This document shows positions 5,257-50,857 of a DNA stretch of 64,000 nt, piece after piece; the first letter of the stretch is position 1, and the number at the start of each line of letters is the position of its first letter. The stretch comes from Terriglobia bacterium (GTDB lineage Bacteria; Acidobacteriota; Terriglobia; JAIQFV01). The stretch lies in assembly GCA_041494885.1 (NCBI GenBank), contig JBGQBO010000012.1, positions 2,637-66,636 of the forward strand, in the 5' to 3' direction. Below the pieces are notes generated by a model. The model ran no database searches and had not been told where the DNA came from. It worked only from the letters and a program-made list of their open reading frames with translations. The position numbers and the translations under genes were made by a program.

Positions 5257-5282
5257 TTTCGAAATTACTTGTGGAATCTGTG

Positions 5283-5349
5283 GTGGGGCGGACGTCTCGT
5301 CTGCCTTTGTATGGGTCAGATACGCGGGCAGACGGGACGTCTGCCCCAC
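5283..5349. repeat. REP-like inverted doublet
   Basis: GTGGGGCGGACGTCTCGTCTGCC ... GGCAGACGGGACGTCTGCCCCAC; a related unit lies at about 39651-39674. Confidence 0.7.
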
Positions 5350-10290: not shown

Positions 10291-10369
10291 ATGAAGTTTG
10301 GACGCAGATTTTCTGATATACTGCCCTCTCGATCCCGTTCCAAATGCCCCACGAAAAACGAGACTTTTC

Positions 10370-12193: not shown

Positions 12194-12371
12194 AGATTCT
12201 CATCCCTCCGGGACACTGAGGGGAGACCCAGGACAATTCACTCCCGGATGATCAGGGCGTGGCAGCCTCACCCAACAAACCGGACACGTCACCCGGTGAG
12301 ACAAGGTTCTCCCTTGAAAGCACGCACTCTTTCCCCTATGCTTCAGTCTGCCTTCCACAGGAGCACACTCC

Positions 12372-13676: not shown

Positions 13677-13712
13677 AGACGTCCTGTCGGGACGTCCCCA
13701 CCCACGTCCATC

Positions 13713-14882
13713 ATGTTGAATGACATCACGATCCTTGACCTTTCCCGGCACCTTCCGGGACCTTATGCCACTATGGTGCTGGGAGATTGGGGAGCAAAAG
13801 TCATCAAAATAGAAGAGCCGATGCTGGGGGATGCGGTTCGATGGACACCCCCCTTCGTGGAGGGGACATCAGCCCTTTTTCTCCAGTTGAACAGGAATAA
13901 GAAAGGGCTCACACTCAATCTGAAAACCCCCGAGGCAAGGGAGATACTGTTGAAGCTCTCCCGCGAGGCCGACGTCCTTGTGGAAAGCTTTCGTCCGGGG
14001 GTCGCGAGCCGGTTTGGAATCGATTATGAGACGCTGAAACAGCACAATCCGCGGCTGGTCTATTGCTCCATCTCAGGGTTCGGACAGACCGGTCCGTATC
14101 GCGATCGGGCTGGACATGACATCAATTACATTGCCCGCGCCGGACTGCTCGGATTGAACACGGATGCCCGCGGTATCCCCATTATCCCGCCCGTTCAAAT
14201 CGCCGACCTGGCCTCCGGCGCCATGCTTTGTCTTGCTGGGATTCTGATCGCCTTGCACGCGCGCCAGACCTCCGGCGAGGGAAAGTTTGTCGACGTATCG
14301 ATGCTGGAGGGGACCATGGCATTATTGCCGATCGCCCTCTCTCACTGGATGGCGGGGGAGCCGATGCGTGTGGGTGAAAAGACGGAGCTCACTGGCACCG
14401 TTCCCTTTTACAACGTGTACCAGACGGCCGATGGAAGGTTTCTGGCTCTGGGCGCGATCGAGCCTAAATTCTGGGAAAATTTTTGCAGGGCAATCCGCCG
14501 GCCCGAGTTGACCTCCCAGCAGTTTGCATCAGGAGCGGAGCGCGAGCGGGTGTTTCAGGAGGTCACTCAAACCCTGGCATCGCGGACGCTGGCCGAGTGG
14601 GTCGCAGTCTTCGAAGGACTTGATGTCTGCTGTGAACCAGTGGAATCTCTCGACGAAGTCCTGGCAAACCCGCACCTCCGGCATCGAGGCATGGTTCAGC
14701 AGGCTGCCCATCCCTCCGGGGGGGTCTTCAAACAATTGGGGACGGCGTTGAAGTTTTCAGATGTTGAGGCGCCTCCCTCTCAACCTGCCCCGAAGCTGGG
14801 GGAGCACACTGACGAAATTCTGTCCCAGTTGGGATATTCCAGATCAGAAATCTCAAATCTCAGGACCCAGGGGGCAATCTGA
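13713..14882 (+). CDS. CaiB/BaiF family III CoA-transferase, alpha-methylacyl-CoA racemase-like
   Basis: LPGPY, LNRNKK, AGHDINY, GAIEPKFW, APKLGEHT motifs. Confidence 0.85.
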   Translation: MLNDITILDLSRHLPGPYATMVLGDWGAKVIKIEEPMLGDAVRWTPPFVEGTSALFLQLNRNKKGLTLNLKTPEAREILLKLSREADVLVESFRPGVASRFGIDYETLKQHNPRLVYCSISGFGQTGPYRDRAGHDINYIARAGLLGLNTDARGIPIIPPVQIADLASGAMLCLAGILIALHARQTSGEGKFVDVSMLEGTMALLPIALSHWMAGEPMRVGEKTELTGTVPFYNVYQTADGRFLALGAIEPKFWENFCRAIRRPELTSQQFASGAERERVFQEVTQTLASRTLAEWVAVFEGLDVCCEPVESLDEVLANPHLRHRGMVQQAAHPSGGVFKQLGTALKFSDVEAPPSQPAPKLGEHTDEILSQLGYSRSEISNLRTQGAI

Positions 14883-17029
14883 TGCCCGCATTCAATCTCT
14901 CCGTTGACGAGAATCATATTGCCATTCTTCGTTTTGACCTTGAAGGCGAGAAGGTCAACAAACTCACCACCGAGGTCATTCGTGAGGCCGAAGAGGTTTT
15001 TGAGGAGATCCGGCATCGCTCTGACATCCGGGCGGTTGTCTTCATAAGCGGCAAGGAAGACAATTTCATCGCCGGTGCCGACATCCATGAATTCCTGAAG
15101 TTCGAATCTGCAGCCCAGGCTACGGAGGCCTCTCGTTACGGACAGAAGGCCCTGCAGAAGATCGCAGACATGAAGATCCCGGTCGTCGCCGCCATCCAGG
15201 GCGCCTGCCTCGGGGGCGGCATGGAGGTGGCGCTCGCCTGCCATTACCGGATTTGTACCGACGACAAGAAAACCCAGTTGGGACAGCCTGAGGTGCAGTT
15301 GGGCTTGCTGCCGGGAGCGGGTGGGACCCAGCGCTTGCCCTCACTTGTTGGGATTCAAAACGCCATTGAGGTTGCCACCAGCGGCCGCAATTACCGGCCA
15401 AAACAAGCGCTCAAGAAGGGGCTCGTTGACGAGGTGGTTCCCCGGCCCCTGCTCCTGAGCATCGCCGCAACTCGCGCCGGCGAACTCGCGGAAGGGAAAC
15501 TCATCCCCCCTCGCCATCTGCCCCGCGGACTGAAAGCGTGGGCACTTGAACGCAATCCCCTGGGACGCCGACTGCTCTTCCGCCAGGCCAAGAAAATTAT
15601 CCGGGAGAAGACGCATGGCCACTATCCCGCGCCCCTCAGTGCCCTCGAAGCCATCCGGGTGGGCGTCTCAGACGGACCTGCGAAAGGATTCCTGGCGGAA
15701 TCCAAGGGATTTGGCGACCTCGCCATGACCGGTGCCTGCCGCCATTTGATCCATCTCTTCTTTGCAACCACCGATGTGAAGAAGGATCCGGGTATCGATG
15801 ACTCTTCCATCAGGCCTCAACCGGTCGACCGGGTCGGCATTCTGGGCGCCGGATTCATGGGAGCGGGCATCGCCGCGGTCTCCTCCAGTGCCGGTCTGAG
15901 CGCTCGCTTGCGGGATGTCTCAGAGGAAGCCTGCCTGAAGGGACTCACGGCTTGTTACAAGGTATTCGAAGATCGCTTTCGTCGAAGATCAATCTCCAGG
16001 TTGGAACTCCAGGAATTAAAGGATCGCGTTTCGGCCACCTCCGAGTTCACCGGCTTTTCGACCTGTAATCTGACCATTGAGGCGGTCTTTGAAGACATTG
16101 AACTCAAGCACCAGGTGATCCGGGAGATCGAGCCGCATCTTCGGGACGACGCCGTCCTCGGTTCGAATACCTCTTCGATTGCGATCACCCGGCTTGCGGA
16201 AGCCTCGCGGCGGCCGGAGCAATTCATCGGGTTGCACTTCTTCTCTCCCGTTCACAAGATGCCTCTGTTGGAGATCATCGTGACTCGACAAACCTCCAAG
16301 CAGGCGATCGCCACCTCAGTCGAGTACGGAAAGAAAATCGGGAAGTTTCCCATTGTGGTTAACGACGGCGTGGGATTCTACACCTCCCGGATCCTGGCGC
16401 CGTATATGAACGAAGCTTCATTCATCCTGGAGGACGGTGCGGCCGTCGAGGCCTTGGACCACGCCATGGTCGATTTCGGTTTTCCAGTGGGGCCTATGAC
16501 CCTGCTGGATGAAGTCGGCATCGACGTGGCCGCGAAAGTGGGAAAAATCATGCTTGAGGCGTTTGGAGAGCGGCTGAAGCCTCCCTCCAGCATGGGGCAG
16601 TTGGTGAAGGACGCAAGGCTCGGACGCAAGAACAAGAAGGGGTTCTATCAGTACATCACCACCCGTCAGGGAGAAACCAAGAAAGCGGGAGTAGACCCGA
16701 CGATCTACGATCTGCTTCCCGGCGGAAGGAATCGAAAAACCATCGCCGTCAACGATGTCCAATTACGCCTCTCCATGGCGATGCTGAACGAATGCGCCCG
16801 TTGCCTGGAGGAAGGCATCCTGCGTTCTCCGCGAGACGGTGACATCGGCGCCGTGATGGGACTGGGTTTCCCGCCCTTCCGGGGGGGGCCTTTTCGATAT
16901 ATGGATTCTCTCGGGTTGGAGAATGTCGTCCGCCACCTGGACTCACTCCAGAAAAAATGGGGGGACCGCTTTAAGCCATCGGAAATGATCGTTCGGTTGG
17001 CGCAGGAGAATAAGAAGTTCTATTCATGA
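14882..17029 (+). CDS. fadJ: Fatty acid oxidation complex alpha subunit (enoyl-CoA hydratase / 3-hydroxyacyl-CoA dehydrogenase)
   Basis: [41 protein letters not shown]; translationally coupled to the upstream gene (TGATG). Confidence 0.92.
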
Positions 17030-17083
17030 GCCAAGTCCATTGATTCCGCCCGGTCCGCACCGTGGCTGGGTTATTGAATCGTT

Positions 17084-17164
17084 GGGGCGCACAGTCCGCC
17101 ATGGCGGACGTCCCACGCGGCACTGGAAACATCTAAACTCGGGGGGCGCACGACTGTGCGCCCC
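17084..17164. repeat. Two REP-like palindromes
   Basis: GGGGCGCACAGTCCGCCATGGCGGACGTCCC and GGGGCGCACGACTGTGCGCCCC. Confidence 0.6.
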
Positions 17165-17190
17165 ACAAGGCCGAAACCAAGGATTCCCTC

Positions 17191-19041
17191 ATGCCCTCCA
17201 AAAACCTCTTCACAGAGAATGATGACCTCCAATTTCACTTCCACCATGGCATCGACTGGAACCCGTTGATTGCCGCCTGGCACGATGAGGGGGAAGGCCC
17301 GCTCAACGCCGGCGAAACGAAGCAGCAGTATGAGGAAGCATTAAGTTTGGTCGGTGAATTCTGTGCCCGGGAAGTGGCGCCTCGCGCCGCCGGAATCGAC
17401 CAGGCGGGGATTCGATGGAAAGATGGAGATGTTATCCTTCCGGACGGTCTCGTTACGAATCTGGAGGCGGCAAAACAACTGGGCATCCTTGCGGTCAGTC
17501 TTCCCAAGGCACTCGGAGGCTGGAACTTTCCTTATACCGTGAATGCCATGATGGTCGAAATGATCTCAACCGCGTGTCCCAACACGCTCAGTTTCCTCGC
17601 TTTTTATCAAAGCCCCGCCATGATGCTGCTTCGCTTTGCGAGCGATGAGATCAAGGAACGATATATCCCTAAATTGGCGAGCGGTGAGATTTCGGGTTCT
17701 GTCGCCATGACGGAACCGGAAGCCGGGAGCGATGTAGGCGCGCTGACAACGGCGGCGGTCGATGCAGGGGATGGGGCCTGGCGCATCACCGGGCGGAAGC
17801 AGTTCATCACCAACGGGTGTGGAGACATCGCGCTGGTCCTGACCCGCACGGATCCCCGCTCGAAAGGACTGGAAGGACTCTCCATGCATCTGGTCCCCCG
17901 CTATATCGAGCGCGAAGGCCAGCGCGTCAGAAATTTCGAAATTGGAAAACCGGAACACAAGATGTCGCTTCGTGGCTCGCCGACCCTGGAACAGTACTTT
18001 GATCACTCCATCGGATATCTGATCGGAGAAGCGGGCAAGGGCTGGGAGTATATCCTGTCCTTTATGAACGAGGCGCGGGTTGCGGTCGGAATCCAGGCCC
18101 TTGGGATCTGTCAGTCCGCCTACCGCAAGGCCTATGACTATGCCCGGCAGCGCCAACAAATGGGTAAGGCCATAGCCCAGCACGAACTCGTGGCCGACAT
18201 GCTGTTGGACATGGATTTGGAAATCCGGGCGCTGCGCGCCATGATTTACGAGGCCACACAGACCGAGGACCGGCGGGTCGGATTGCAGAAACTCCTGGCA
18301 GAAGGAAAGTTGAGTGAGGCCGAGATCAAGACGGTGAAGCCATTGATCAAGAAACTGGAACATTCATCTCGCGAGCTGACCCCGTTGATCAAGTACTGGG
18401 GAGCGGAGAAGGCGGTCGAGATCAGCCGGAAGGCCCTTCAAATTCATGGGGGCTATGGAATTTTCGAATCGTATGAAGTGGAGCGGCATTTACGCAACTC
18501 CGTCATCACGGCGATCTATGAAGGAACGTCCCAAATTCAGGCCCTCATGGCGCTCAAAGACCAGCTCAACTGGGCCATGTCCCGTCCCAAAGACTTTGTG
18601 AGTGCCCGTCTGGCTCTAAAGGCGGCCAAGTCAAGGGCCGGCGCGGCCACGAAGAACCTGCTGGCAATCCGGGACGAAATCTCAAGCGCGATCCAATATC
18701 TGGTCCTGGATATCCTTCGTGAGAAAAAGAAAGGGGCCAAGGGATCCGGGAAGGACTTAGGTTGGATCCAAATGATCCGGCAAGGAAAGTCGGCGTTTTC
18801 AAGGGATGATCTGAAACACTTCAGTTATGCCCTGCTGAGTGCAGAGCGGCTCGCCACGATGTTTTCTCTCTATCATGGCGCTCGTTTGCTGAAGGCCCTG
18901 GCGAATCATACGGACGATGAAAAACGGACGACGCTGGCGGATCGCTACCTTCGAAGAAGACGGGCCGTGGTCGAATCCCTGGGTGGACAAATCCGAAGCG
19001 GGGACCGAAGCACGCTGGAATACATCCAGGAAAATTTGTAG
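17191..19041 (+). CDS. Acyl-CoA dehydrogenase (long type with C-terminal extension)
   Basis: AMTEPEAGSD, GRKQFIT, LQIHGGYG, IYEGTSQIQ motifs. Confidence 0.92.
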   Translation: MPSKNLFTENDDLQFHFHHGIDWNPLIAAWHDEGEGPLNAGETKQQYEEALSLVGEFCAREVAPRAAGIDQAGIRWKDGDVILPDGLVTNLEAAKQLGILAVSLPKALGGWNFPYTVNAMMVEMISTACPNTLSFLAFYQSPAMMLLRFASDEIKERYIPKLASGEISGSVAMTEPEAGSDVGALTTAAVDAGDGAWRITGRKQFITNGCGDIALVLTRTDPRSKGLEGLSMHLVPRYIEREGQRVRNFEIGKPEHKMSLRGSPTLEQYFDHSIGYLIGEAGKGWEYILSFMNEARVAVGIQALGICQSAYRKAYDYARQRQQMGKAIAQHELVADMLLDMDLEIRALRAMIYEATQTEDRRVGLQKLLAEGKLSEAEIKTVKPLIKKLEHSSRELTPLIKYWGAEKAVEISRKALQIHGGYGIFESYEVERHLRNSVITAIYEGTSQIQALMALKDQLNWAMSRPKDFVSARLALKAAKSRAGAATKNLLAIRDEISSAIQYLVLDILREKKKGAKGSGKDLGWIQMIRQGKSAFSRDDLKHFSYALLSAERLATMFSLYHGARLLKALANHTDDEKRTTLADRYLRRRRAVVESLGGQIRSGDRSTLEYIQENL

Positions 19042-19063: not shown

Positions 19064-19798
19064 TTAAAGATCCTGTAAAAACGGATTGGACCTCCGTTCG
19101 CGGCCGATCGTCGTCGCGGGTCCGTGGCCGGGATAGACGAGGGTGGAGTCATCGTATTTCCGTAGAATCCGGGCCAACGACTCCATGATCGTTTCGAATG
19201 AGCCTCCCCACAGATCCGTCCGTCCGATGGACGAGAGAAACAGCGTGTCACCCGTGAAGAGGACTTGCTTTGCGCTCTCGTTCCCATTCCGGGAGGAAAC
19301 AGGTTCCATCCCCGAACCCGCCCTGCTGTTAACAGGACGTATGCCCCTCTTCTCTCCGATACCCGTGAATTCTGTTTCAAACGTCAAACTCCCCGGGGTG
19401 TGTCCAGGCGTGTGCATCACCTCACAAACAATCGATCCGCACCGTATGACGTCACCGGTTTCGAGGTAGGCATCCACCTTTGACGTCGGTGGTTCGGGGA
19501 TGCCGATCATGGCCGCCTGCCTCTTCAGATTTTCGAGAAGAGGCAGATCCGCCTTGTGGAGGCAAACCTCGGCCCCCGTATGGTCGCGCAGTTCGGCGTT
19601 CGCCCCGACATGATCGATGTGAGTATGCGTATTGAATATCTTGCGAAGCTTGAGGTCGTGTTGCTTCAGCACCGCCAGGATGCGCTCCACCTCATCGCCG
19701 GGATCAATGACGATTGCTTCGCGCGTCGCCTCATCGCCCAGGATGGCACAGTTGCATTGCAGCAGACCGACTGGAAAGGTTTCGAAGATCATTTTCAA
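19064..19798 (-). CDS. MBL-fold metallo-hydrolase (glyoxalase II-like)
   Basis: THTHIDH, PGHTPG, TGDTLF, PGHG; carries a roughly 25-aa low-complexity insertion. Confidence 0.9.
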   Translation of the reverse strand: MKMIFETFPVGLLQCNCAILGDEATREAIVIDPGDEVERILAVLKQHDLKLRKIFNTHTHIDHVGANAELRDHTGAEVCLHKADLPLLENLKRQAAMIGIPEPPTSKVDAYLETGDVIRCGSIVCEVMHTPGHTPGSLTFETEFTGIGEKRGIRPVNSRAGSGMEPVSSRNGNESAKQVLFTGDTLFLSSIGRTDLWGGSFETIMESLARILRKYDDSTLVYPGHGPATTIGRERRSNPFLQDL

Positions 19799-20054
19799 GA
19801 CTCCAAGAGATTCAGATTCTTTTGGGACACGGACTCACGCAGACAAACGCGGATCGCATATAGAAATAATGGAGTCTTACCTTTCTTGGATTCAACCTTA
19901 GGGGATACAGCCCCCTTTCTGATTAGCACCGGCGCATAATGGAGTGCTGTCATCTCACAGGGTCGATCCATACAGGGAATTATAGCATGGACGCCACCCC
20001 ATCAATTCGCAATCTCACGTTGACGTAAGCTGTAACTCAAAGATAATTCACCAC

Positions 20055-20082
20055 TTGACACCACACGTGGGCGTTGTAGAAT
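20055..20082 (+). promoter_or_regulatory. Sigma70-type promoter of the tes locus
   Basis: TTGACA (20055-20060), 16 nt spacer, TAGAAT (20077-20082). Confidence 0.65.
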
Positions 20083-20088
20083 TCAGTC

Positions 20089-20199
20089 CTCGGTCGGGCC
20101 CTGCCCCATCGGGGCCTATGAGACGATGTCTCGAGACCAAACCGCAAGCCAACTTTCGGCTGGCTCTAGGCGTAAAACGCCACGTAGTTGCCGACCGGG
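20089..20199 (+). ncRNA. Candidate structured 5' leader RNA (multi-stem junction)
   Basis: Closing stem CGGTCGG/CCGACCG encloses four hairpins; no match to a riboswitch family I recognise. Confidence 0.4.
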
Positions 20200-20333
20200 C
20201 GGCTGCCGGACCTGAACGAATTCCAGTCTTCCAGAGTCTCAGGGGGAGAAGACTTCTTCAATCCAGGTTAGATCGAGCGGTCCATCAGGGAGGCGTTTCA
20301 AATCCAGCAGAATATGAATTCGAGGAGGAGTAA

Positions 20334-21989
20334 GTGAGTACACAGACAATTCAGGACCCATCCCAGGCTGTCAACCTGCCGTCGGCAGAGGAAAAAGAGG
20401 ATCGGTTTCAATTTGTACAGCATCAGGTCATACAGCCCAAAACGACCTACACGGGCGCGCGCATTGACCCGCCCCACGTCGGACTGCCGAAGGTGACGCA
20501 ATCCCTTTGCCCGGAATGCACGAAGCTGATAGATGCCCTGGTCTTCGAAGAAGACGGCAAGGTCATGATGGAAAAGACCTGCCCTGAGCACGGATACGTG
20601 AAGGACGTCTGTTATTCAGACGCAAAGATGTACTTGAAAATGGAGCGGTGGCACTTTGGCGACAACCGGGGGGTTTCCAATCCTGCAATCCCCGACGCCA
20701 CGCGATGCCCGGAGCAGTGCGGCTTGTGCTCGATGCACACCTCCCACACCGGTCTGGCCAACGTCGACCTGACGAACCGCTGCAATTTGACATGCCCAGT
20801 CTGCTTCGCCAATGCCAATGCCTCGGGCTACCTCTACGAACCCTCGTTAGAGCACATCCGGAAGATGCTGCAGGCGCTGCGGAACGAGCGGCCCGTGGCC
20901 TGCCGGGTGGTCCAGTTTTCCGGCGGCGAACCCACCCTGCATCCCCGATTCATCGAGATCCTCCGGATGGCGGCCGAGATGGGCTTCTCTCATCTCCAGG
21001 CGGCCACCAACGGCATTAAGTTCCTCGACCTGGATTTCGCTATGGCGGCCAAGGAGGCCGGCCTGCACACCCTCTATCTTCAGTTCGACGGGGTTTGCGA
21101 CGACATCTACAAACGAACCCGCGGTGAATCCCTGTATGAGCAAAAACTCAAGGTCATCGAAAACTGCCGCAAGGCCGGGTTGAAGATCTGCTTTGTCCCC
21201 ACTATTGTGAAGGGATTGAACGATCATCAGATTGGCGACATCGTCCGGCTCGCTATCGAAAACGTGGATTGTACCAGCGCTATCAGTTTCCAGCCGGTCA
21301 CTTTTACCGGGCGCATTGCCAAGAGGGAACGGGAAGCCAAGCGCTTTACGATGACGGACGTAGCGCGGTGCGTCGAGGAGCAGACCGGACTGGCCGAACG
21401 CTACGAGGATTGGTTCCCACTGTCCTGTGTCACCCCCTTTTCAAAACTCCTCAGCGCCGTCAAAGGCGAAGAGACGACGCAGTTGAGCAGTCATCCTCAT
21501 TGTTCCATCGGCACTTATCTCTTTGTGAGTGAAGACCGCAAGGAAGCTGTGCCGATCACGCGGTTTGTCGACATCGGCGCCATGCTCCAGGCCATCGACG
21601 GCATTTCCCGCGAAACGAGTCGTGCGACGTTCAAGTTCTTCACCAAGATCAAGGTGTGGCAATCTTTGCAGAAGTACTTCAAACCGGAGCGCGCGCCCAA
21701 AGGGTTGACCTTTGCCAAGTTCCTGCAAACCCTGCAGGGTATGACCGACAAGAAATACGGCCGCGGAGGGAACGACGGCACGTTCACTTACCGGACGTTG
21801 ATGGTCGCCGGGATGCATTTCATGGATTCCTATAATTACGACGTCGAGCGCGTGAAGCGGTGCATCATTCATTACGCCGCGCCGAACGGCCTGATCTACC
21901 CCTTCTGCGCATATAATTCCGGACCCACGTTCCGGGAAATGATCGAGAAGAAGTACTCGGTGCCATTCAAAAAGAACGGTTCACACTAG
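20334..21989 (+). CDS. tes: Radical SAM tetraether lipid synthase (Tes / MJ0619 family) homolog
   Basis: SLCPEC..KTCPEHG rubredoxin-like site, CPEQCGLCSMH auxiliary cluster, NRCNLTCPVCFANA radical SAM motif, HPHC and GMHFMDSYNYDVERVKRCIIHY..PFCAYN C-terminal cluster region. GTG start with GAGGAG RBS. Confidence 0.85.
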   Translation: MSTQTIQDPSQAVNLPSAEEKEDRFQFVQHQVIQPKTTYTGARIDPPHVGLPKVTQSLCPECTKLIDALVFEEDGKVMMEKTCPEHGYVKDVCYSDAKMYLKMERWHFGDNRGVSNPAIPDATRCPEQCGLCSMHTSHTGLANVDLTNRCNLTCPVCFANANASGYLYEPSLEHIRKMLQALRNERPVACRVVQFSGGEPTLHPRFIEILRMAAEMGFSHLQAATNGIKFLDLDFAMAAKEAGLHTLYLQFDGVCDDIYKRTRGESLYEQKLKVIENCRKAGLKICFVPTIVKGLNDHQIGDIVRLAIENVDCTSAISFQPVTFTGRIAKREREAKRFTMTDVARCVEEQTGLAERYEDWFPLSCVTPFSKLLSAVKGEETTQLSSHPHCSIGTYLFVSEDRKEAVPITRFVDIGAMLQAIDGISRETSRATFKFFTKIKVWQSLQKYFKPERAPKGLTFAKFLQTLQGMTDKKYGRGGNDGTFTYRTLMVAGMHFMDSYNYDVERVKRCIIHYAAPNGLIYPFCAYNSGPTFREMIEKKYSVPFKKNGSH

Positions 21990-22101
21990 AAAGTAATTTC
22001 CGCGAGGCCGGCTGCCGGCCGGCCTTGCGCGACAGAGACTCGGGCTTCCCCTTGAGAAAATCCCAATTCAGGAAACAACGTAGAGGAAGGATTTTCCCGA
22101 T

Positions 22102-23742
22102 ATGTATACACGTGATGGCGCTCGCATCAAGACAGCTAAGCGACCGAATGTTCCTAGGCGAACCCAGCCGGCGCCTCCCACCCCCCATGACTTCGAACGG
22201 TACCTCAGCCATCCCCTGACCCGCAAAATCCTGAAGCGGCTGACGACGGGTCCTAATGGGCGCACGCCCATGGAGAAGATCTTCTATTCCTACCGGAACC
22301 CTGACGCGTCCCTTTCCGAAAGGATCAAGTACGCCCCCGTGCACAAGGCCATGGATTATTTTGTCGCCCGGACGCACACATCGCCGGAGCAGGCCGTGGA
22401 GAGAGTCTTTCATCACTGGCCGACGGTTCGAACGCTTCTGAACACCGCGCGTTCCGTGGCGACCCACGGTTTGCTGACCCCCCAGCGGTTTATCGCTCCC
22501 CTGCTGGTCGTCTGGAACATTACCAACGCCTGCAACCTCTCATGCAAACACTGCTACCAGGACGCGATTCACAAGCGCGGTACCGACGAACTGACCCGGG
22601 CTGAAAAATTGAACGTGGTCGACCAGCTTTCGGAGAACCTCGTGCCTCTGATCGCCCTAGCGGGCGGCGAGCCCCTGGTGGACCCCGATGTTTGGGCTGT
22701 TCTGGAGCGGGCTCAACAGAAGTTCGTGTACGCGACGCTCGCCACCAATGGAACCCTGCTGACTCCCCGCAACTGTGAGCGCCTGGCCTCCCTGGGCGTC
22801 AAATACGTCGAAGTCTCCCTGGACTCCATCGATCCGGCCGTTCATGACGGCTTTCGTCAGATGAAGGGCGCCTGGGCCCGGTCCATTGAGGGAATCAAGA
22901 ACGTGAATGCGGCGGGCATGCGATGCGGGATCGCCTGCTGCTTCACCCGGGATACGGTGGAACAGGCGCAGGAGATGATTAACCTGGCCATTTCCCTGAG
23001 CGCCAACACCTTCGTTCATTTCAATTTCATCCCCGTGGGACGGGGTGTGGAAATGGCCCACGAAGATATGTCCCCGTCGCAACGCGAAGGCCTCTTGCGA
23101 CTCCTTCTAAAAACATTGAACGAAGGAAAGATCAGTGTCATGTCGACAGCGCCTCAATTCGGGCGGGCTTGCCTGATGTTCGGAGATCCGGAGGGGATGA
23201 TGGCGATGGGACACGGCGGATCCGGCCGGGGCCAGCAGGCACGCGTCGTCTCCAAGTACATCGGCGGCTGCGGGGCCCACCGCTGTTATTGTTCGATCCA
23301 ACCCAACGGCCAGGTCAACCCGTGCGTCTATATGCCTACCCGGACCATCGGCGACCTCCGAACGACTCCCTTCACAGAAATCTGGAACCAGCCGCTGGAA
23401 GCGATCCTGAGTGACCGGGACGATCGGGGCGATCACTGCGGGGTCTGCGACTATCGCTTCTTCTGTGGAGGATGCCGCGCGCGGGCCGAGAGCTACACGG
23501 GGGACGTCCAGGCGGGTGATCCGGGATGCATTTACAATGAGCATATGTGGAACGAGATCCTTTCTCGCCGCCAGCATGAACTGAATACCCTGAACGACCT
23601 CACCGCCCGAAGGGTGGGTGTCGGTGGCCGGAGCTCAGGAACTTCTATATTGCCGACTGAATCGCGCCATACTCCCGATCCAGGATCGCCGGCGGCCGAC
23701 TCGAATGCGCCCGCCGAGTTAGGCTCGCACCCTTCTGCATGA
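22102..23742 (+). CDS. Radical SAM/SPASM protein, candidate GMGT synthase (Gms)-like
   Basis: Helical N-terminal extension, PQRFIAPLLVVWNITNACNLSCKHCY, SPASM GGCGAHRCY..PC..CGVC.YRFFCGGCRARA..DPGC; directly downstream of tes. The radical SAM/SPASM family call is secure; the Gms call is inferred. Confidence 0.7.
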   Translation: MYTRDGARIKTAKRPNVPRRTQPAPPTPHDFERYLSHPLTRKILKRLTTGPNGRTPMEKIFYSYRNPDASLSERIKYAPVHKAMDYFVARTHTSPEQAVERVFHHWPTVRTLLNTARSVATHGLLTPQRFIAPLLVVWNITNACNLSCKHCYQDAIHKRGTDELTRAEKLNVVDQLSENLVPLIALAGGEPLVDPDVWAVLERAQQKFVYATLATNGTLLTPRNCERLASLGVKYVEVSLDSIDPAVHDGFRQMKGAWARSIEGIKNVNAAGMRCGIACCFTRDTVEQAQEMINLAISLSANTFVHFNFIPVGRGVEMAHEDMSPSQREGLLRLLLKTLNEGKISVMSTAPQFGRACLMFGDPEGMMAMGHGGSGRGQQARVVSKYIGGCGAHRCYCSIQPNGQVNPCVYMPTRTIGDLRTTPFTEIWNQPLEAILSDRDDRGDHCGVCDYRFFCGGCRARAESYTGDVQAGDPGCIYNEHMWNEILSRRQHELNTLNDLTARRVGVGGRSSGTSILPTESRHTPDPGSPAADSNAPAELGSHPSA

Positions 23743-23853
23743 AGCACGGGAACCCATGAGTCCCCCTCTTCATGCGAATTCACTTGCGATGTGAATGCCT
23801 CCCCTCCTGCCTAACCAATGCGACGTTTTGACCGGGTGCCGCAGATCACCTGT

Positions 23854-23882
23854 TTGACAAACGCCTTTCCTCTCCCTAACAT
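23854..23882 (+). promoter_or_regulatory. Sigma70-type promoter
   Basis: TTGACA (23854-23859), 17 nt spacer, TAACAT (23877-23882). Confidence 0.6.
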
Positions 23883-23899
23883 CAAACCTCCGGCTGTCT

Positions 23900-24061
23900 G
23901 GGCATCCGCGGTCGCGGACAGTGCGCCCTGGTGGCGGGTCTCATATGAACAACTCCTGTGAGAATGAGAATCAACTCAACAACCGATTGAGACGTAACCA
24001 ATTCTAAAGCGCTCTATATTCCGATCACCCCCGGGCAGACTGTCCGCCACCGCGGATGCCC
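23900..24061. repeat. Long imperfect inverted repeat (REPIN-like)
   Basis: GGCATCCGCGGTCGCGGACAGTGCGCCC (23901-23928) pairs with GGGCAGACTGTCCGCCACCGCGGATGCC (24033-24060). Confidence 0.75.
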
Positions 24062-24083
24062 CGCGGGTTCTCCTGCAACTTAA

Positions 24084-25184
24084 ATGATTTCTCCAAAGTC
24101 AATCCTCATCATTCGCTGGGCGCGCCTGGGTGATGTGATTCTGTCGGAGCCCGCCGTGCGGTTGTGTCGCCAGATTTTTCCCGATGCCCGCATCAGTTAC
24201 CTCACTGGACACCGGTGCGCGCCGGTTCTGACCATGTTCCCGGATGTGGATGAGATTATTGCTTTGGATCGGGTGGCCCTGAGGGATGGAAACAAGATAT
24301 CGTCCATTGGAAGGATCTTTCGATTTGCCAATGAACTCCGAAACCGGAAATTCGATCTGGCCATTGACCTGATCGGATTTCGCGAATCCGAACTGCTCGT
24401 CTTTTGGAGCGGCGCCCGCTGGCGGGTCGGCCTGAAGCGATTTCAAAAACCCTACTGGAGATTCTGCTTTAATCTGCCTCCCGTGGCCGAGGACAAATCT
24501 CTTCTTGTCGCTGAAATGTTCCATACCGTGGTTCAGAGCCTTGCCTCCAACCCCTCTTTTCGACGGGCAATCGGTGGACATTCATCCGAATCCGCCGCGG
24601 ATGAATTTCCACTTTCTCCAATCGGGGACTGCATCATCCCCCGCCTCGAAGTGACGACTGCCGCTGAAGCAAAGGCGTGCGAATTCTGGATCCAACAGGG
24701 CCTGGATCAACTGGATGAGGTATACGGATTTCAGATGTCGGCCTCGGGGGAAATTCGAACGTGGCCGGTGGAGCGATTCATCGATCTGGCGGCTCGCATC
24801 GTCATCCATGCCCGGGGAAAAAACCGCCGTGCGGGGTTTGTAAACTTTTCTGCCGCTCACGAAGCCTCATTGTGCGAGGAGATGACCCGGGACATGCAGT
24901 CGGCCGGAAACTTCGCGGTGGCAGCCATCGGTCCACAGGATCGAGCCGAAGCGATTCCCCAGCTCGCCGGGTTGTTGAAACGCTGCACCGCGGTCGTGAG
25001 CAACGACACCGGACCCATGCATTTGAGTGCAGCCGTCGGCACCCCGACGCTGGGTCTGTTCAGTATCGGGGTCACGGAACATTATCGGCCTTTGGGTGCA
25101 AAGTGCGGCTTTCTTAAGAAAAACCCCCTCTCGCAACTTACAGTGGAAGAGGTCTGGAAAGAATTGGTCCGCATGTTGGAATGA
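24084..25184 (+). CDS. Glycosyltransferase family 9 (ADP-heptose:LPS heptosyltransferase-like)
   Basis: ILIIRWARLGDVIL, RTWP.ERF and SNDTGPMHLSAAVGTPTLGLF motifs. Confidence 0.9.
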   Translation: MISPKSILIIRWARLGDVILSEPAVRLCRQIFPDARISYLTGHRCAPVLTMFPDVDEIIALDRVALRDGNKISSIGRIFRFANELRNRKFDLAIDLIGFRESELLVFWSGARWRVGLKRFQKPYWRFCFNLPPVAEDKSLLVAEMFHTVVQSLASNPSFRRAIGGHSSESAADEFPLSPIGDCIIPRLEVTTAAEAKACEFWIQQGLDQLDEVYGFQMSASGEIRTWPVERFIDLAARIVIHARGKNRRAGFVNFSAAHEASLCEEMTRDMQSAGNFAVAAIGPQDRAEAIPQLAGLLKRCTAVVSNDTGPMHLSAAVGTPTLGLFSIGVTEHYRPLGAKCGFLKKNPLSQLTVEEVWKELVRMLE

Positions 25185-25364
25185 ACCGTGATGCCCTCCT
25201 CAGCCCGGCTGGGTCGCTGTCACTTGTGGTATAATTAAATCCTCCGTGCGGAGATTTTTGGGTTCGCCGAGCGAACTGTGAGAACGGGACGAGGTCCGTC
25301 GCAGACTCGCCAGCCCAGGTCTCCCAATACATTTCGAAGTCAAGTTAGGGGCCCGCGTCATTGA

Positions 25365-27461
<2,097 letters not shown>

Positions 27462-46385: not shown

Positions 46386-47816
46386 TCATCGTCTGATACC
46401 TCGTCTGACGCTGCGATACCTCGACCTTCCCAAGAGACGAATGCCGGCTCTCTTAAGCCTTCTCTTCGTCGACACAGTCGGCCTCGCTGCGCTTTCCATC
46501 CTTATTGGCTCAACTTGGCGGTCTCCGCAGTGGCGCCGGAAGGGCTTCTTCTCGCGATAGGAGCGGGCGAGTTCAAGATAGATCCCCAGGTCCCGGTCGA
46601 GGTCCGACTGGGTGCCGTCAAAGTAAAAATTTCGGATGGGGATCCCGCCGTAGTCGCGGCTGACCTTGGGATAGATGGCTTCGCTCACAATGCCGTTCAT
46701 GCAGGTAAAGGGGCTGATGTCGATGACGCCGTCGGCCCCGTGAAGGGCATGGTAGGCCGCCAGACCGATACTCAAAACCATTTCGCCCAGCACCCCGGAG
46801 GCGGGCAGGTAAGGCCAAGCCAGCTTGATAATCTCCTCTACCCGCGGCTCATCGTGGCCCTCAAAGTCCTCCCGAAAGGGCGCCAGCAAAGCCTGTTCGT
46901 CCGCTTCTTGGAAGTGTTCACGCACATTGGCGCCCAACATCTCCAGCGAAAATGTTCGCCCAACGAGCCGCAGCCGGCGCCGTTGTTCCTCGTTGGTGTA
47001 ATAGATCCATTCGCTGATGTGGCTGAGTGAGGCCTGTGCGCCATAGCTCTCCAGGCGGCGGATCAAGTCCTCGTTGGAGAAGGTATTCAACCGACAAAAA
47101 ATCTCACCCACCACGCCAATAAGGGGAACGTCGGGGTCGTCGCAGATGGGGATCGCGCGAAAGCGGTCGCGCGCCCGAGTCATGGATTTGACCAGAGAGC
47201 GAAGGTGGCAGCCTGGATCATCACAGCCCGCCTCCATGGTCTCGCAAAGGTCGGTCAGGCTTTCCTGGAAAGCGTGGTCGGCCGCGCCGGGCGTGGTCTC
47301 GTAAGGCCGCGTCTTGAGCAAGAGCCGGTGAATAGTGTCAGATGCCACGACCGCACGCCAGGCCAGTCGCATAAACTTGTCAGCAATGTTTCCGAGGTCG
47401 GCGTAGCCGTTCTTGTCCGTAGGCGAGATGATTTCGATCTGGGGGTAGCCCGCCTGACGCAGCACTTTCTTGAGGGATGGGGCGTACTGTCCGAACCGGC
47501 AAGGCCCGTCCGTTGTCGGAATGAAGAAGGCCGCACGTGCCGGATCGAATCCCGGCTCCTGGATGACACGAAAAAGGTCGCCGAGGACCACCTTGGCAGG
47601 ATAGCACTCGTCGCCGCTGGTGACCTTACTCCCCAGTTCCAGTGTGCGGCTGTCCGACCGCGGCGTGACATACGCTTCAACGCCGAGCCGGCGGAATACG
47701 GCCGCAAGCATTTCCGAGCTACCCTCCGCCATGACCGCGAGATAGAGCTTCTTGCCGGCCAGCGGGTTCGAGGATTCGACCTGGTTGCTCACATGACAGC
47801 GGTGGAAGATGGGCAT
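46386..47816 (-). CDS. 2-hydroxyacyl-CoA dehydratase-like reductase subunit, PlsR/Ger C-terminal type
   Basis: GDECYP, GPCRFGQY, IGVVGEIF, GE..L, PFTCM Fe-S motifs; overlaps the upstream gene. Confidence 0.75.
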   Translation of the reverse strand: MPIFHRCHVSNQVESSNPLAGKKLYLAVMAEGSSEMLAAVFRRLGVEAYVTPRSDSRTLELGSKVTSGDECYPAKVVLGDLFRVIQEPGFDPARAAFFIPTTDGPCRFGQYAPSLKKVLRQAGYPQIEIISPTDKNGYADLGNIADKFMRLAWRAVVASDTIHRLLLKTRPYETTPGAADHAFQESLTDLCETMEAGCDDPGCHLRSLVKSMTRARDRFRAIPICDDPDVPLIGVVGEIFCRLNTFSNEDLIRRLESYGAQASLSHISEWIYYTNEEQRRRLRLVGRTFSLEMLGANVREHFQEADEQALLAPFREDFEGHDEPRVEEIIKLAWPYLPASGVLGEMVLSIGLAAYHALHGADGVIDISPFTCMNGIVSEAIYPKVSRDYGGIPIRNFYFDGTQSDLDRDLGIYLELARSYREKKPFRRHCGDRQVEPIRMESAARPTVSTKRRLKRAGIRLLGRSRYRSVRRGIRR

Positions 47817-50800
47817 CGAAGAAATCCTTTGCTATCGAGATAGGCTTCACAGCGCGTGATAAATCCGGCGTCGTTCGAGTGGCCGTCGAACTGAAGCACC
47901 AGGGAGGGCTTGCCCGCAGCGTCGTTCAGAAATGACTTAATATAGGAATCCGGCCCGCACTTGAAATTGGAGATGTAGACAAGGTGCAGATTGGGGAACC
48001 GGCGGGCAAGGTGTGCCGCGGCGAGGATGCGCCGGCCGGAGTTCCAGTACATGTTCGAATTAACCTCAGTGATGTCTTCCCCATCGAGCGACAGAAAATC
48101 CATGGGAATCACGTTGACCCCGTACAGCAGGCGCAGTTTCCTGGGGATATCGCAGTTGACGCCGCGGTCGTAGAGGTTGTAAGCGCGTCCCACCAGGATC
48201 ACACCCGGCTCGCCGCTTTGCCTCAGACCGTCCAGCACCTTTTCCCCGGCGGCGAGTGAAGCGCCCACAAACTCGTCCTGGGCGGCGTAGGCGGCCATTA
48301 AAGCCCGGTCGCTCTGACGGCGGGAGATCAGAAGCCGCTCGGCGAATGCGGCCAGTTCTTTCTCCACGAACTTCCGCCCGGAGCGGAAATGCACCGTGGG
48401 TATAAGAAACCTGTTGTGCGCCTGCTCAATCTGCGGCACAACCCGCATTACAAAAGGCAGCGTCTGGTTCCAGGGACAGAAATGCGATGGAATTTCGGAA
48501 TCGGGCGCCTCCGCATTGATGGCGTTGGGCAATAGAATGTAATCCACTTTCTGGTCGAGCAATTCCCGGACGTGTCCGTGGGCCACCTGGACGGGAAAAC
48601 AAGGCTGGGCGATCGCCAGCTCTTCTCCGCTTACGGCCACCCTGCGGTCGGTGGGTGACGATACCACCACATCGAAACCCAGCTCCTGGAAGTAGGTACC
48701 CCAGAACGGGAAAGACTCGTAGTAAAACATGGCGCGGGGGATCCCCACCTTCAACCGATCACCCCCGGGCGGCACGAGCACTTTTTCAAAAAGCCTCTCG
48801 CGGTATTCGATCAGGTCGTTGATGACCGGTTTGCGGTCGGAAACCGAACGCTTCCGAAACTTGTCTGAGCACTGGTCGCCCCAGTAGGACCGTTCTCCCT
48901 CAACCAGAAATTCCTTCATGTCGCAATAGTTCGAGCAGGCGTGGCAGACAAAGTCACGCGAAGTGAATTGGAGCCGTGAGAGGTCGTAACCCCGGAAGCG
49001 GCTGGGACGTCGAGCGTCCCGCATTCGATCTCGCGCTAGGAGCGCCATGCCGATGGCGCCGATCACGCCATTGTGGGGAGGGACAATGATACGCTTCCCC
49101 AATATTTGCGAGAACGCCGCAGCGACGGCGTCGTTGTAGGCCGTGCCGCCCTGGAAGAAGATGACATTGCCCGTCTTGCGGTCGCGCACCACGCGGTTGA
49201 GATAATTGAGCGCGACGGAATAGGCCAGCCCCGCCACCAGGTCAGCCAAGCCGGCGCCCCTGAGCCTCAGCGCCGTGACATCCCGCTCCATAAAGACGGT
49301 GCACCGTTCACCCAGTTGGGCGGGACGGGCGGAGGAGAGCGCCAGTTGGGCAAACTGGCCCTTGATGGAAATCCCCAGTTTCTCAGCCTGCTCCTCGAGA
49401 AACGAGCCGGTGCCCGCTGCACAAGCCTCATTCATGGCGAAGTCCACGACGACACCTTTCTCCAAGCTGATGAACTTGGAGTCCTGTCCGCCGATCTCGA
49501 AGATGGTGTCCACGGGCTCGATCCTATTTTGCTGACAAACGTGCATCGCGCCGGTTTTGTGTGCCGTAATCTCGTCATTCACGGTATCTGCACCAACCAG
49601 TTCACCGATCAGCTCGCGTCCGGAGCCCGTCGTTCCCACGCCATGGATGTCGAGGGAAGATCCGAGCTCCGCCTCGATGGTCTTCAGCCCGCGGCTCACG
49701 ACCTCAATGGGCCGGCCCTCGGTGTAAAGATAAATCTCCTTCAGCAGGTTTCCTTCCGCGTCGGTCACCACGAGATTTGTGCTGACTGAACCGACATCGA
49801 TGCCGAGGTAAGCCTCGATTCGTTGTCCTGGCGACGGGAGATCCACTTGCTTCACCTGGTTGCGCAGCAGGAGTACATTGGCCATTGAAAGTGGATGACC
49901 ACACGCGAACTCCCTTCCTGTCGCTTTTTCCTCCTCCAACAGGTGGATGGACTTGAAGGGCCTCTTCCTCCGTTCTTCCGCCTCGAAGAGAGCGGCACCC
50001 AACGCACCCATCCAGTTGAAGAGTTCGGGGATTAGAAAGTCCTCTTCTTTAAGCTTGAATGCTTCGCGCAGGGCATTGCAAACACCCTGATTGAGCGCGA
50101 CCGCGCCGATGAAGGCCACGGGCGGGATAACCGGCCTACCCCGCACGATGCTCGATTTGAAATTCCGCGCCACGGCGTCGCAGAGCCCGCGCAAAATCTG
50201 ATCCGTCTTGTATCCCTTCTGCTGGGCGTGAATCATGTCGCTCTTCGCAAACACAGAACAACGGCCAGCGATGCGCGCGGCACAGCTGGCCCTGCATGCG
50301 GCGGGGCCCACCTCTTCGATGGAGTACAGCAGGCGTGACGCCTGCTGGTCGATAAACGAACCCGTCCCTGCTGCGCACTCGGCACTGCTTTGGTAGTCCA
50401 CAATTCCCAGGCGCTTGCCGGTGTCCTTGGGCTCCAGTCGCAGGTACTTCGACGACTCGCCACCCATCTCAAACACAGTGCGCACTTCGGGGCAAAGGGT
50501 GCGCAAGCCCTTCGCAACGGCGCGAAACTCGTTTTCTACAGAGATACCAAGGATCCTGGCGATGAGCCGGCCACCTGAACCTGTCACCCGGATCCCCTCG
50601 ATTGCTTGCTCCGGGACATGGGCGATAAATTCTTTTAACAAAAGATAAGCCGCCTCCACAGGGGTGCCTTGAATGCGCTGATAGCGCGAGAGAATTAAGG
50701 GGCGATCGGCCAGACCGCCTGCCTTGGGAAATAAGGCGGAGAAGAACGCCCCCGATTTCTCAACGAGGGCGTGAAGCACAATCTCGTCGGCCGGATTGCC

Positions 50801-50857
50801 GACCGCAGCCATCTTCAAACTGACCGCCCCGATGTCCAGTCCTACATTGATGCTCAT
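47789..50857 (-). CDS. Double BadF/BadG/BcrA/BcrD ATPase plus DUF2229 domain protein, PlsA/Ger type
   Basis: Two activase domains (CAAGTGSF..CSVF; GIDVGS..CAAGTGSF..CTVF), FVCHACSNYC, VGIPRA..FW..F..LGF, CFP, FKCGPD, TRCEAY. Confidence 0.8.
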   Translation of the reverse strand: MSINVGLDIGAVSLKMAAVGNPADEIVLHALVEKSGAFFSALFPKAGGLADRPLILSRYQRIQGTPVEAAYLLLKEFIAHVPEQAIEGIRVTGSGGRLIARILGISVENEFRAVAKGLRTLCPEVRTVFEMGGESSKYLRLEPKDTGKRLGIVDYQSSAECAAGTGSFIDQQASRLLYSIEEVGPAACRASCAARIAGRCSVFAKSDMIHAQQKGYKTDQILRGLCDAVARNFKSSIVRGRPVIPPVAFIGAVALNQGVCNALREAFKLKEEDFLIPELFNWMGALGAALFEAEERRKRPFKSIHLLEEEKATGREFACGHPLSMANVLLLRNQVKQVDLPSPGQRIEAYLGIDVGSVSTNLVVTDAEGNLLKEIYLYTEGRPIEVVSRGLKTIEAELGSSLDIHGVGTTGSGRELIGELVGADTVNDEITAHKTGAMHVCQQNRIEPVDTIFEIGGQDSKFISLEKGVVVDFAMNEACAAGTGSFLEEQAEKLGISIKGQFAQLALSSARPAQLGERCTVFMERDVTALRLRGAGLADLVAGLAYSVALNYLNRVVRDRKTGNVIFFQGGTAYNDAVAAAFSQILGKRIIVPPHNGVIGAIGMALLARDRMRDARRPSRFRGYDLSRLQFTSRDFVCHACSNYCDMKEFLVEGERSYWGDQCSDKFRKRSVSDRKPVINDLIEYRERLFEKVLVPPGGDRLKVGIPRAMFYYESFPFWGTYFQELGFDVVVSSPTDRRVAVSGEELAIAQPCFPVQVAHGHVRELLDQKVDYILLPNAINAEAPDSEIPSHFCPWNQTLPFVMRVVPQIEQAHNRFLIPTVHFRSGRKFVEKELAAFAERLLISRRQSDRALMAAYAAQDEFVGASLAAGEKVLDGLRQSGEPGVILVGRAYNLYDRGVNCDIPRKLRLLYGVNVIPMDFLSLDGEDITEVNSNMYWNSGRRILAAAHLARRFPNLHLVYISNFKCGPDSYIKSFLNDAAGKPSLVLQFDGHSNDAGFITRCEAYLDSKGFLRCPSSTAVM

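Follow-up and report, generated by a model that had tools for sequence, protein, structure and literature searches.

Glycerol dialkyl glycerol tetraethers of the branched kind (brGDGTs) and their H-bridged forms serve as proxies for past temperature, pH and oxygen, and both their producers and the enzymes that make them are only partly known. The closest described enzyme is the archaeal radical S-adenosylmethionine (SAM) protein MJ0619 (GDGT-MAS, or Tes), for which Lloyd 2022 (PMC9433317) reports coupling of lipid tails in vitro, lipids bound in the structure and the formation of both macrocyclic archaeol and GDGT, with an earlier pterin assignment not corroborated in the passages concerned. 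A bacterial homologue of this protein is encoded by the gene tes, an open reading frame (ORF) of 551 aa on the positive strand at 20334..21989 of a 64,000-nucleotide stretch (hereafter the window) of contig JBGQBO010000012.1 from a Terriglobia bacterium (assembly GCA_041494885.1; 5.53 Mb, 127 contigs, 98.9% complete). Directly downstream lies a gene, 22102..23742 (+), for a radical SAM/SPASM protein that resembles the GDGT-bridging enzyme Gms. We lean, by a small measure, towards a two-gene tes-gms unit for membrane-spanning, possibly H-bridged lipids of the branched glycerol monoalkyl glycerol tetraether (brGMGT) type in this uncultured Acidobacteriota lineage.

Several published systems form the background to this locus. 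Zeng 2022 listed 456 bacterial Tes homologues, with the best matches in Ca. Koribacter versatilis and Ca. Solibacter usitatus, and proposed a role in brGDGT formation. S. usitatus was found to produce brGDGT by Halamka 2022, who proposed a pathway via PlsAR, Tes and Grs homologues. Mss and Ger were identified by Sahonero-Canavesi 2022, who define Ger by a BBD core architecture and detected neither Mss in acidobacteria nor a Tes homologue in Mss hosts. In Garcia 2024, Gms is the enzyme that bridges the two chains of a GDGT; it belongs to the SPASM enzymes, is marked by a helical domain at its N-terminus (COG4001) and has AhbD as its outgroup. The paper reports 193 bacterial Gms homologues, 31 of them from Acidobacteria encoding Tes, together with bacterial gms clusters with tes or mss and a proposed role in brGMGT formation. 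In Li 2024 the Gms model, aligned on SuiB, begins with an N-terminal domain of six helices, continues through a radical SAM core and a bridging region and ends in a SPASM domain, and archaeal Gms was found only in obligate anaerobes. More recently, a 2026 paper citing Chen et al. 2025 (known here through that citation) states that Tes is involved in tetraester synthesis, and that brGDGT coincides with Tes plus Ger in S. usitatus while only tetraesters occur in Koribacter. The proposal of such a pathway, including tes-gms clusters in Acidobacteria, is already published, and the general picture of 2022-2024 is unchanged by the present locus. The Tes homologues of S. usitatus and K. versatilis belong to the same phylum and carry the same proposal of iso-C15 coupling toward brGDGT or iso-diabolic acid, whereas the lineage of the window has tes directly beside a gms-like gene. 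Mss of Thermotoga and Thermoanaerobacter is a different protein that serves the same overall purpose, joining bacterial fatty acyl chains tail to tail by radical SAM chemistry.

The tes ORF opens with a GTG codon immediately 3' of an in-frame TAA, with GAGGAGGAG just upstream; the assigned start is probably right, because homologues of 551-554 aa align from residue 1. An earlier sequence-only reading of this DNA had described the ORF as a bacterial tetraether synthase homologue retaining the expected metal ligands, and the ORF and every motif it named are present where it placed them. CPEC begins at residue 59, CPEH at 83, CxxxCxxC at 125 (followed by His135) and the radical SAM CxxxCxxC at 150, and the C-terminal motifs HPHC, GMHF, KRC.IHY and PFC begin at 387, 493, 508 and 523, respectively; the set as a whole is far beyond chance expectation.

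The sites were matched to MJ0619 through an alignment with the 7TOL chain, in which the chain index minus 20 gives the MJ0619 residue number and the ligands are those reported in Lloyd 2022. A rubredoxin-like zinc-ribbon domain (residues 52-94, 20487..20615, +; Pfam PF23545, E 1.3e-18) holds C59/C62/C83/H86 with the spacing CX2CX20CX2H, identical to that of C9/C12/C33/H36 in MJ0619. The N-terminal auxiliary [4Fe-4S] cluster ligands C125/C129/C132/H135 (20706..20747, +) align with C73/C77/C80 and a conserved His of MJ0619, and each is kept in 49 of the 57 aligned family members. Within the radical SAM core (residues 146-307, 20769..21254, +; PF04055, E 4.9e-28), C150/C154/C157 align with the radical SAM cysteines of MJ0619 and are invariant in all 57 sequences, while the MJ0619 SAM contacts F106/R210/Q268/S271/R275 correspond to F158/R263/Q320/T323/R327. 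The C-terminal cluster region (21492..21911, +), delimited from the same alignment and the conservation table, contains C390, M494, C510, Y514 and C525. M494 and Y514 occupy the positions of Met439 and Tyr459, so that the earlier statement that ligands, Met and Tyr are all retained is borne out by the alignment. C390, C510 and C525 align with cysteines of the 7TOL chain and are kept in 55-56 of the 57 sequences, and we infer that they serve as the cysteine ligands of this cluster, a position for which passages of Lloyd 2022 name only Met439. The MJ0619 variants M439A and Y459F/L stay active according to the same source, and the retention of the Met and Tyr is therefore a family signature rather than proof of activity.

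Pfam, NCBIfam, PDB alignment and predicted fold agree on the family to which this protein belongs. The Tes equivalog model NF045702 matches residues 55-544 over model positions 2-485/486 with 591.3 bits against a cut-off of 450, and the protein scores 331 bits against the sister family TrsS, for which the cut-off is 490. The alignment with PDB 7tol_A (MJ0619, GDGT-MAS) extends from residue 50 to 546 over chain positions 20-509 (E 3e-137). An AlphaFold2 model built from the 57-member family alignment has a mean predicted local distance difference test (pLDDT) score of 88.9 and a predicted TM-score (pTM) of 0.90, and its top Foldseek matches are 7TOM and 7TOL, with 42-43% identity, TM-scores of 0.92-0.93 by target length and, over 504-510 columns, a root-mean-square deviation of 2.3-2.7 A; after these two, the best match reaches a query-normalized TM-score of only 0.33 and covers the radical SAM core alone. 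With all four metal sites and the SAM-binding residues present, the protein is a full member of the GDGT-MAS family. By prediction it also preserves the entire fold, down to the C-terminal domain in which the second lipid pocket is formed. As far as prediction tells, these results exclude the case that the sequence-only reading had set against itself, namely a short, non-Tes member of the family lacking lipid pockets, and they uphold its assignment of the ORF to the Tes family.

Proteins 93-100% identical to this Tes are found in metagenome bins bearing the titles Terriglobia or Acidobacteriia and on one short contig labelled Nitrospirota, and identity to relatives under the titles Bryobacterales, Solibacter and Terriglobales is 68-75%. 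Related loci were taken as the best 80 of 283 stretches encoding relatives in one-genome-per-species contigs; 77 of these 80 bear titles of Acidobacteriota lineages, the other three being titled Castellaniella sp. (a 2,994-base contig), Verrucomicrobiia and "bacterium". Database names for these proteins are mixed: among the 120 homologues listed, three are called "tetraether lipid synthase Tes" by NCBI and eight carry the name "7,8-dihydro-6-hydroxymethylpterin dimethyltransferase" (JGI), in keeping with the earlier remark that such proteins are often mis-annotated as pterin methyltransferases.

Compared with MJ0619 (7TOL, 7TOM), the acidobacterial protein shares the four-domain architecture and keeps the ligands of the rubredoxin-like iron and the three [4Fe-4S] clusters, but it carries an N-terminal extension of about 50 residues that is modelled with low confidence, it has Thr323 in place of Ser271, and its host is a bacterium without the archaeal lipid pathway. 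No match to PcrB/GGGP synthase, to Fe-ADH_2 of the glycerol-1-phosphate (G1P) dehydrogenase type or to CDP-archaeol synthase (CarS) was found in the 98.9%-complete genome, with archaeal controls positive in each search. An isoprenoid diether is accordingly an unlikely substrate on gene content; the tails would be bacterial, which leaves a bacterial glycerolipid as the lipid on which Tes acts. Since the genes for archaeol-type substrates were not found in so complete a genome, the protein, although a family member by sequence and fold, cannot by this reasoning be an exact functional equivalent of the archaeal enzyme in forming GDGT.

Beyond what the sequence-only reading had considered, the context of tes includes an adjacent gms-like gene and Ger/PlsA-like genes, and the genome carries two Tes paralogues at other places. 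The gms-like ORF begins 112 nt after tes and encodes a 546-aa protein with Radical_SAM (PF04055) and SPASM (PF13186) domains, preceded by a conserved helical N-terminal domain of about 125 aa. Its top curated NCBIfam families, NirJ2 and AhbD, score about 234 bits, below their cut-offs of 500; the closest solved relatives by sequence are PqqE and SkfB, and SuiB is the top solved structural match of its AlphaFold2 model (pLDDT 81.1). In this model seven helical segments at residues 30-122 (pLDDT about 90) are followed by the radical SAM core and then by SPASM. C144/C148/C151 and ten more cysteines after residue 350 are invariant in 38 of 38 aligned homologues, the later ten being enough for two auxiliary clusters in the SPASM domain. 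No Pfam family matches the N-terminal helical domain, which is conserved among homologues and absent from the AhbD/NirJ-like matches in other genomes.

Homologues of the gms-like protein that are 52-60% identical over about 90% of its length occur in bins titled Terriglobia, Bryobacterales and Acidoferrales. At 54-55% identity, again over about 90% of the length, it matches the homologue clusters P0369 and P0380, which contain RMG52861.1 and MCS6953920.1, entered in Dataset S4 of Garcia 2024 under "Gms Accession" with Mss no and Tes yes. By this similarity to Gms accessions, rather than by a tree, the neighbour groups with the Gms clade apart from AhbD; it fits the description of a bacterial Gms homologue and is set beside archaeal Gms by that published description only. 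Like Gms, it combines a radical SAM core and a SPASM domain, here preceded by an N-terminal domain that is modelled as helical and may correspond to that of Gms, and it co-occurs with Tes as Garcia 2024 gave for 31 Acidobacteria. In contrast to archaeal Gms, which Li 2024 found only in obligate anaerobes, the host has aerobic terminal oxidases, and the enzyme would here act on a tetraether or tetraester that is branched and non-isoprenoid. The possibility that this gene encodes a GDGT ring synthase (Grs) was considered and rejected, as Grs are B12-binding radical SAM enzymes and the neighbour is a SPASM protein.

The link between the two genes was examined in 251 Acidobacteriota genomes, this genome included, with Tes model matches accepted at E <= 1e-40; three of the 251 are marked as unpublished and enter the counts solely as genomes without the genes or with matches under the cut-off. 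A Tes-family match was found in 152 genomes, only 38 of which have one over the Tes cut-off. Full-length gms-like matches in a profile search (at least 624 bits) occur in 12 genomes, the next best match reaching 259 bits and starting after the N-terminal domain. All 12 are among the 38 genomes with Tes over the cut-off, and the gms-like protein was found in none of the 213 surveyed genomes without such a Tes. Adjacency of the two genes is seen in 3 of the 80 related loci and in all four Tes-bearing genomes of the window's own family, which represent two genera and may partly overlap the three loci; in the more distant genus the adjacent proteins are 78% and 72% identical to the Tes and gms-like proteins of the window. 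Among 25 sampled genomes of the same class outside this family, none has a Tes match at E <= 1e-120. Other neighbours of tes in the 80 related loci are MacB/FtsX permease (20), histidine kinase (12) and Mur ligase (9) genes, and no lipid gene recurs among them; a still more frequent neighbour, in 37 of the 80, was rejected as a spurious Arg/Pro-rich antisense ORF without a Pfam match.

Between tes and the gms-like gene there is no promoter-like or terminator-like consensus site. Upstream of tes, by about 250 nt, lies a promoter-like site (TTGACA-16-TAGAAT, 11/12 consensus positions; 20055..20082, +), which as a consensus match is weak evidence; three such sites occur in 19700-25400 against a mean of 2.2 in shuffled sequence, a count not above chance. 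The intergenic region folds at -43.1 kcal/mol (z -2.97; none of 200 shuffles as stable), with a GC-rich RNA hairpin right after the tes stop codon (21999..22032, +) that is not followed by a U-run. The stem is kept within the genus, in five of seven aligned relatives, while the loops vary; locus L011 has a different hairpin at the same place, and L102 has no clear equivalent. This element may act as an attenuator or as a stability element between the two genes. An Rfam scan of 19500-25600 (E up to 1) found no family in the tes leader and, besides a weak match described below, gave only a chance-level small RNA match.

By analogy with MJ0619, two sequential 5'-deoxyadenosyl radicals would each take a hydrogen from the terminal methyl group of a lipid tail. 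The first substrate radical would be held at a sulfur of the C-terminal [4Fe-4S] cluster, where attack by the second would form a C(sp3)-C(sp3) bond. Iso-C15 chains from glycerophospholipids are the likeliest tails; chemically, such chains end just as phytanyl chains do, and the Tes product would then be a membrane-spanning lipid of the iso-diabolic-acid type. The gms-like radical SAM/SPASM enzyme would next join the two C30 chains to each other to give an H-shaped lipid of the brGMGT type, and Ger/PlsA-like reductases, three pairs of which are encoded in the genome and one in the window, would turn ester bonds into ether bonds. Sequence, predicted fold, gene context and co-occurrence are what was observed, and each chemical step in this scheme is proposed by analogy. 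The suggestion of the sequence-only reading that this bacterium may make branched GDGTs or membrane-spanning lipids is a reasonable one; it is not new, having been in print for Acidobacteria since 2022, and the Met and Tyr that it cited in support are not decisive.

A number of observations weigh against the proposed tes-gms unit. The 12 gms-like carriers span only four families (with eight, two, one and one genomes), and the co-occurrence therefore represents few independent events; moreover, in 11 of the 12 surveyed gms-bearing genomes the two genes are not neighbours, lying on other contigs or 2.8 Mb apart. Where they do adjoin, as in the window, the strong hairpin could uncouple the expression of tes from that of gms. 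The Ger/PlsA-like pair of the window lies 25 kb downstream of tes on the other strand and does not belong to the same operon, and the other two Ger-like loci are on other contigs than tes. Three heme-copper oxidase subunit I genes indicate that the organism is not an obligate anaerobe, the only setting in which archaeal Gms was found (Li 2024). Two long Tes paralogues in the genome could do the coupling instead. Turning to published work, Sahonero-Canavesi 2022, using stringent criteria, found a Tes homologue in no more than three of the 14 acidobacteria known to make iso-diabolic acid; a true Tes is thus not what acidobacteria in general use for the coupling, and the 38 of 251 genomes in the present survey agree with this. 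A paper of February 2025 describes the activity of bacterial Tes homologues, in the part cited, as not experimentally confirmed, and a literature search whose reach did not include Chen et al. 2025 turned up no work in which a Tes or Gms homologue from a bacterium was tested by enzymatic or genetic means.

The ester-to-ether step bears on the first of the alternatives. The window encodes a 1022-aa Ger/PlsA-like ATP-dependent reductase (47789..50857, -) with two PF01869 (BcrAD_BadFG) stretches and PF09989 (DUF2229), the BBD arrangement, and a 476-aa partner (46386..47816, -) whose ORF overlaps the large gene by 28 nt and which has a weak DUF2229 match (28.4 bits). Further BBD loci, each with a partner, lie on contigs C73 (737-5425) and C22 (18406-23651) of this genome (G000); the C73 pair is 56% (large protein) and 50% (partner) identical to that of the window, and the C22 pair is more distant. 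The large protein shares the BBD architecture with Ger, but the Ger-like function is here divided between two proteins, one with BBD and the other a partner of 420-530 aa, instead of residing in one BBDHDDH chain. For the C-terminal D/H (HGD-D-like) modules of Ger, the partner shows no more than its weak DUF2229 match, and the two PF06050 matches of the genome are on contig C13, away from the pair. The three pairs are candidates for the conversion of lipid esters to ethers. Tes may nonetheless couple ester-linked iso-C15 diacyl lipids and the pathway stop at iso-diabolic tetraesters or mixed ester/ether lipids, with no brGDGT or H-bridge and with the gms-like enzyme acting elsewhere. We regard this as unlikely, while giving it real weight: according to excerpts of the 2026 paper citing Chen et al. 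2025, K. versatilis, with a Tes homologue only, has exclusively iso-diabolic tetraesters. The present genome, however, has three Ger/PlsA-like loci, a combination with Tes said in the same excerpts to coincide with brGDGT in S. usitatus, and the 12 of 12 co-occurrence together with the conserved adjacency argues that Tes and the gms-like enzyme act on the same lipid.

The long paralogues, both outside the window, raise a second alternative. One is encoded on contig C20 (3428-5512, +; 694 aa, 322 bits to the Tes model) and the other on contig C11 (24981-26999, -; 672 aa, 309 bits); these are loci L096 and L097. Both cover the whole Tes model and score under the cut-off of 450, and both lack the N-terminal auxiliary cluster ligands while the rubredoxin-like, radical SAM and C-terminal sites are kept. 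Their relationship to Tes was assessed by a quick maximum likelihood tree of 84 rows (LG+G4; support by SH-aLRT, the Shimodaira-Hasegawa-like approximate likelihood ratio test, only), comprising 75 of the 150 representatives listed (470-720 aa, with fragments and intein-bearing forms dropped), six acidobacterial homologues and the three proteins of this genome. The window's Tes falls in a 14-row clade (support 97) with Bryobacterales-type proteins and a cluster holding a Phycisphaerae protein, and the two paralogues group elsewhere, with a Terriglobus roseus protein, in a clade of 7 rows (100). A larger clade of 28 rows (99) takes in both and stands apart from another of 56 rows; the named members are bacterial in the former and archaeal (four) in the latter, labels that are thin in that organism names were attached to just 2 of 10 and 4 of 10 of the proteins looked up. 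In all five paralogue-clade sequences at least three of the four N-terminal auxiliary ligands are replaced, and two of the five also lack C-terminal cluster ligands.

It could be proposed that the long paralogues make iso-diabolic acid and that true Tes has a narrower role, such as the second bond (trialkyl to dialkyl tetraether) or a macrocycle within a single lipid. The long type accounts for most of the 152 Tes-family-positive genomes and is thus commoner in Acidobacteriota than true Tes, with its 38 of 251; the paralogue clade includes the T. roseus protein, and subdivision 1 acidobacteria generally make iso-diabolic acid according to passages of Sahonero-Canavesi 2022; and MJ0619 itself makes both the macrocycle and GDGT (Lloyd 2022). 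The two sequences without C-terminal cluster ligands make the chemistry of the clade less certain than that of true Tes, and we consider a division of labour of this kind improbable. True Tes and the commoner long paralogue co-exist in this genome, and gene surveys that pool the two will therefore mis-estimate who makes these lipids.

The genes around the paralogues are recorded as separate observations. Two further loci, L098 (G145:C18) and L099 (G234:C14), come from a different family within the class; each has a long paralogue on one strand with a true Tes, whose identity to that of the window is 67%. An island of the two was considered, as the pairs in G145 and G234 are about 6 kb apart, and was rejected: the genes in between in G145 (IS200-like, a BNR/sortilin-like protein and unknowns) are unrelated. 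A radical SAM gene (431 aa) after the C20 paralogue was likewise rejected as a member of the gms-like family, being only 22% identical to the gms-like protein of the window. The C11 paralogue is followed by an acyl-CoA dehydrogenase gene.

A function outside lipid synthesis, for instance methylation of pterins, the earlier assignment of MJ0619, or other radical SAM chemistry, is echoed by the eight pterin names among the 120 homologues listed, but is very improbable given the in vitro lipid coupling and bound lipids of Lloyd 2022, where the pterin role was not corroborated in the passages cited, and given a predicted fold that keeps the C-terminal lipid-pocket domain. Genuine isoprenoid GDGTs made from archaeal-type diethers are the least probable outcome, since PcrB, Fe-ADH_2 of the G1P-dehydrogenase type and CDP-archaeol synthase were not found in this nearly complete genome, even though the score lies over the archaeal Tes equivalog cut-off and identity to MJ0619 is 42-43%.

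Returning to the favoured tes-gms unit, its furthest consequence is that brGMGTs, H-shaped tetraethers of the branched kind, are made by the lineage of the window in soils with at least periodic exposure to oxygen, which we consider possible but rather doubtful. If true, this would be the first genome-defined bacterial source for brGMGT proxies, and Gms-type bridging would not be confined to obligate anaerobes. The genes tes and gms with one Ger-like pair make up a small, well-defined set for testing both the coupling of iso-branched tails by a bacterial Tes and the formation of brGMGT by a bacterial Gms. The genome also encodes at least three B12-binding radical SAM proteins, on contigs C80 (7471-9075, 534 aa), C5 (777-2216, 479 aa) and C20 (43521-45314, 597 aa); because this class includes GDGT ring synthases and lipid methylases, they are possible candidates for the methylation or cyclisation of brGDGT.

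The remaining features of the window are noted for completeness. Just upstream of tes, 10298-19041 (+) contains a run of the fatty-acid beta-oxidation type with genes for an acyl-CoA synthetase, a thiolase, a family III CoA-transferase, a FadB-like hydratase/dehydrogenase and, at 616 aa, an acyl-CoA dehydrogenase; the final part of the run is syntenic in loci L010 and L011. Downstream, 341 nt after the gms-like gene and with its own promoter-like site, lies a gene for a glycosyltransferase of family 9 (GT9, the heptosyltransferase family; 24084-25184, +), which follows gms in L010 as well (77% identical) but was not found at that place in L011; a connection with lipid head groups would be speculative. 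At 1330-5349 (-) the window encodes a 1339-aa AsmA/YhdP-like protein, whose family has been implicated in carrying lipids to the outer membrane. Finally, a weak thiamine pyrophosphate (TPP) riboswitch match at 25448-25562 (+; 22.8 bits against a gathering score of 54.3, E 0.38) falls exactly at the 5' end of the thiC ORF (25473-27461); from this position it is plausibly a diverged but real riboswitch, in which case the start of thiC probably lies further downstream.

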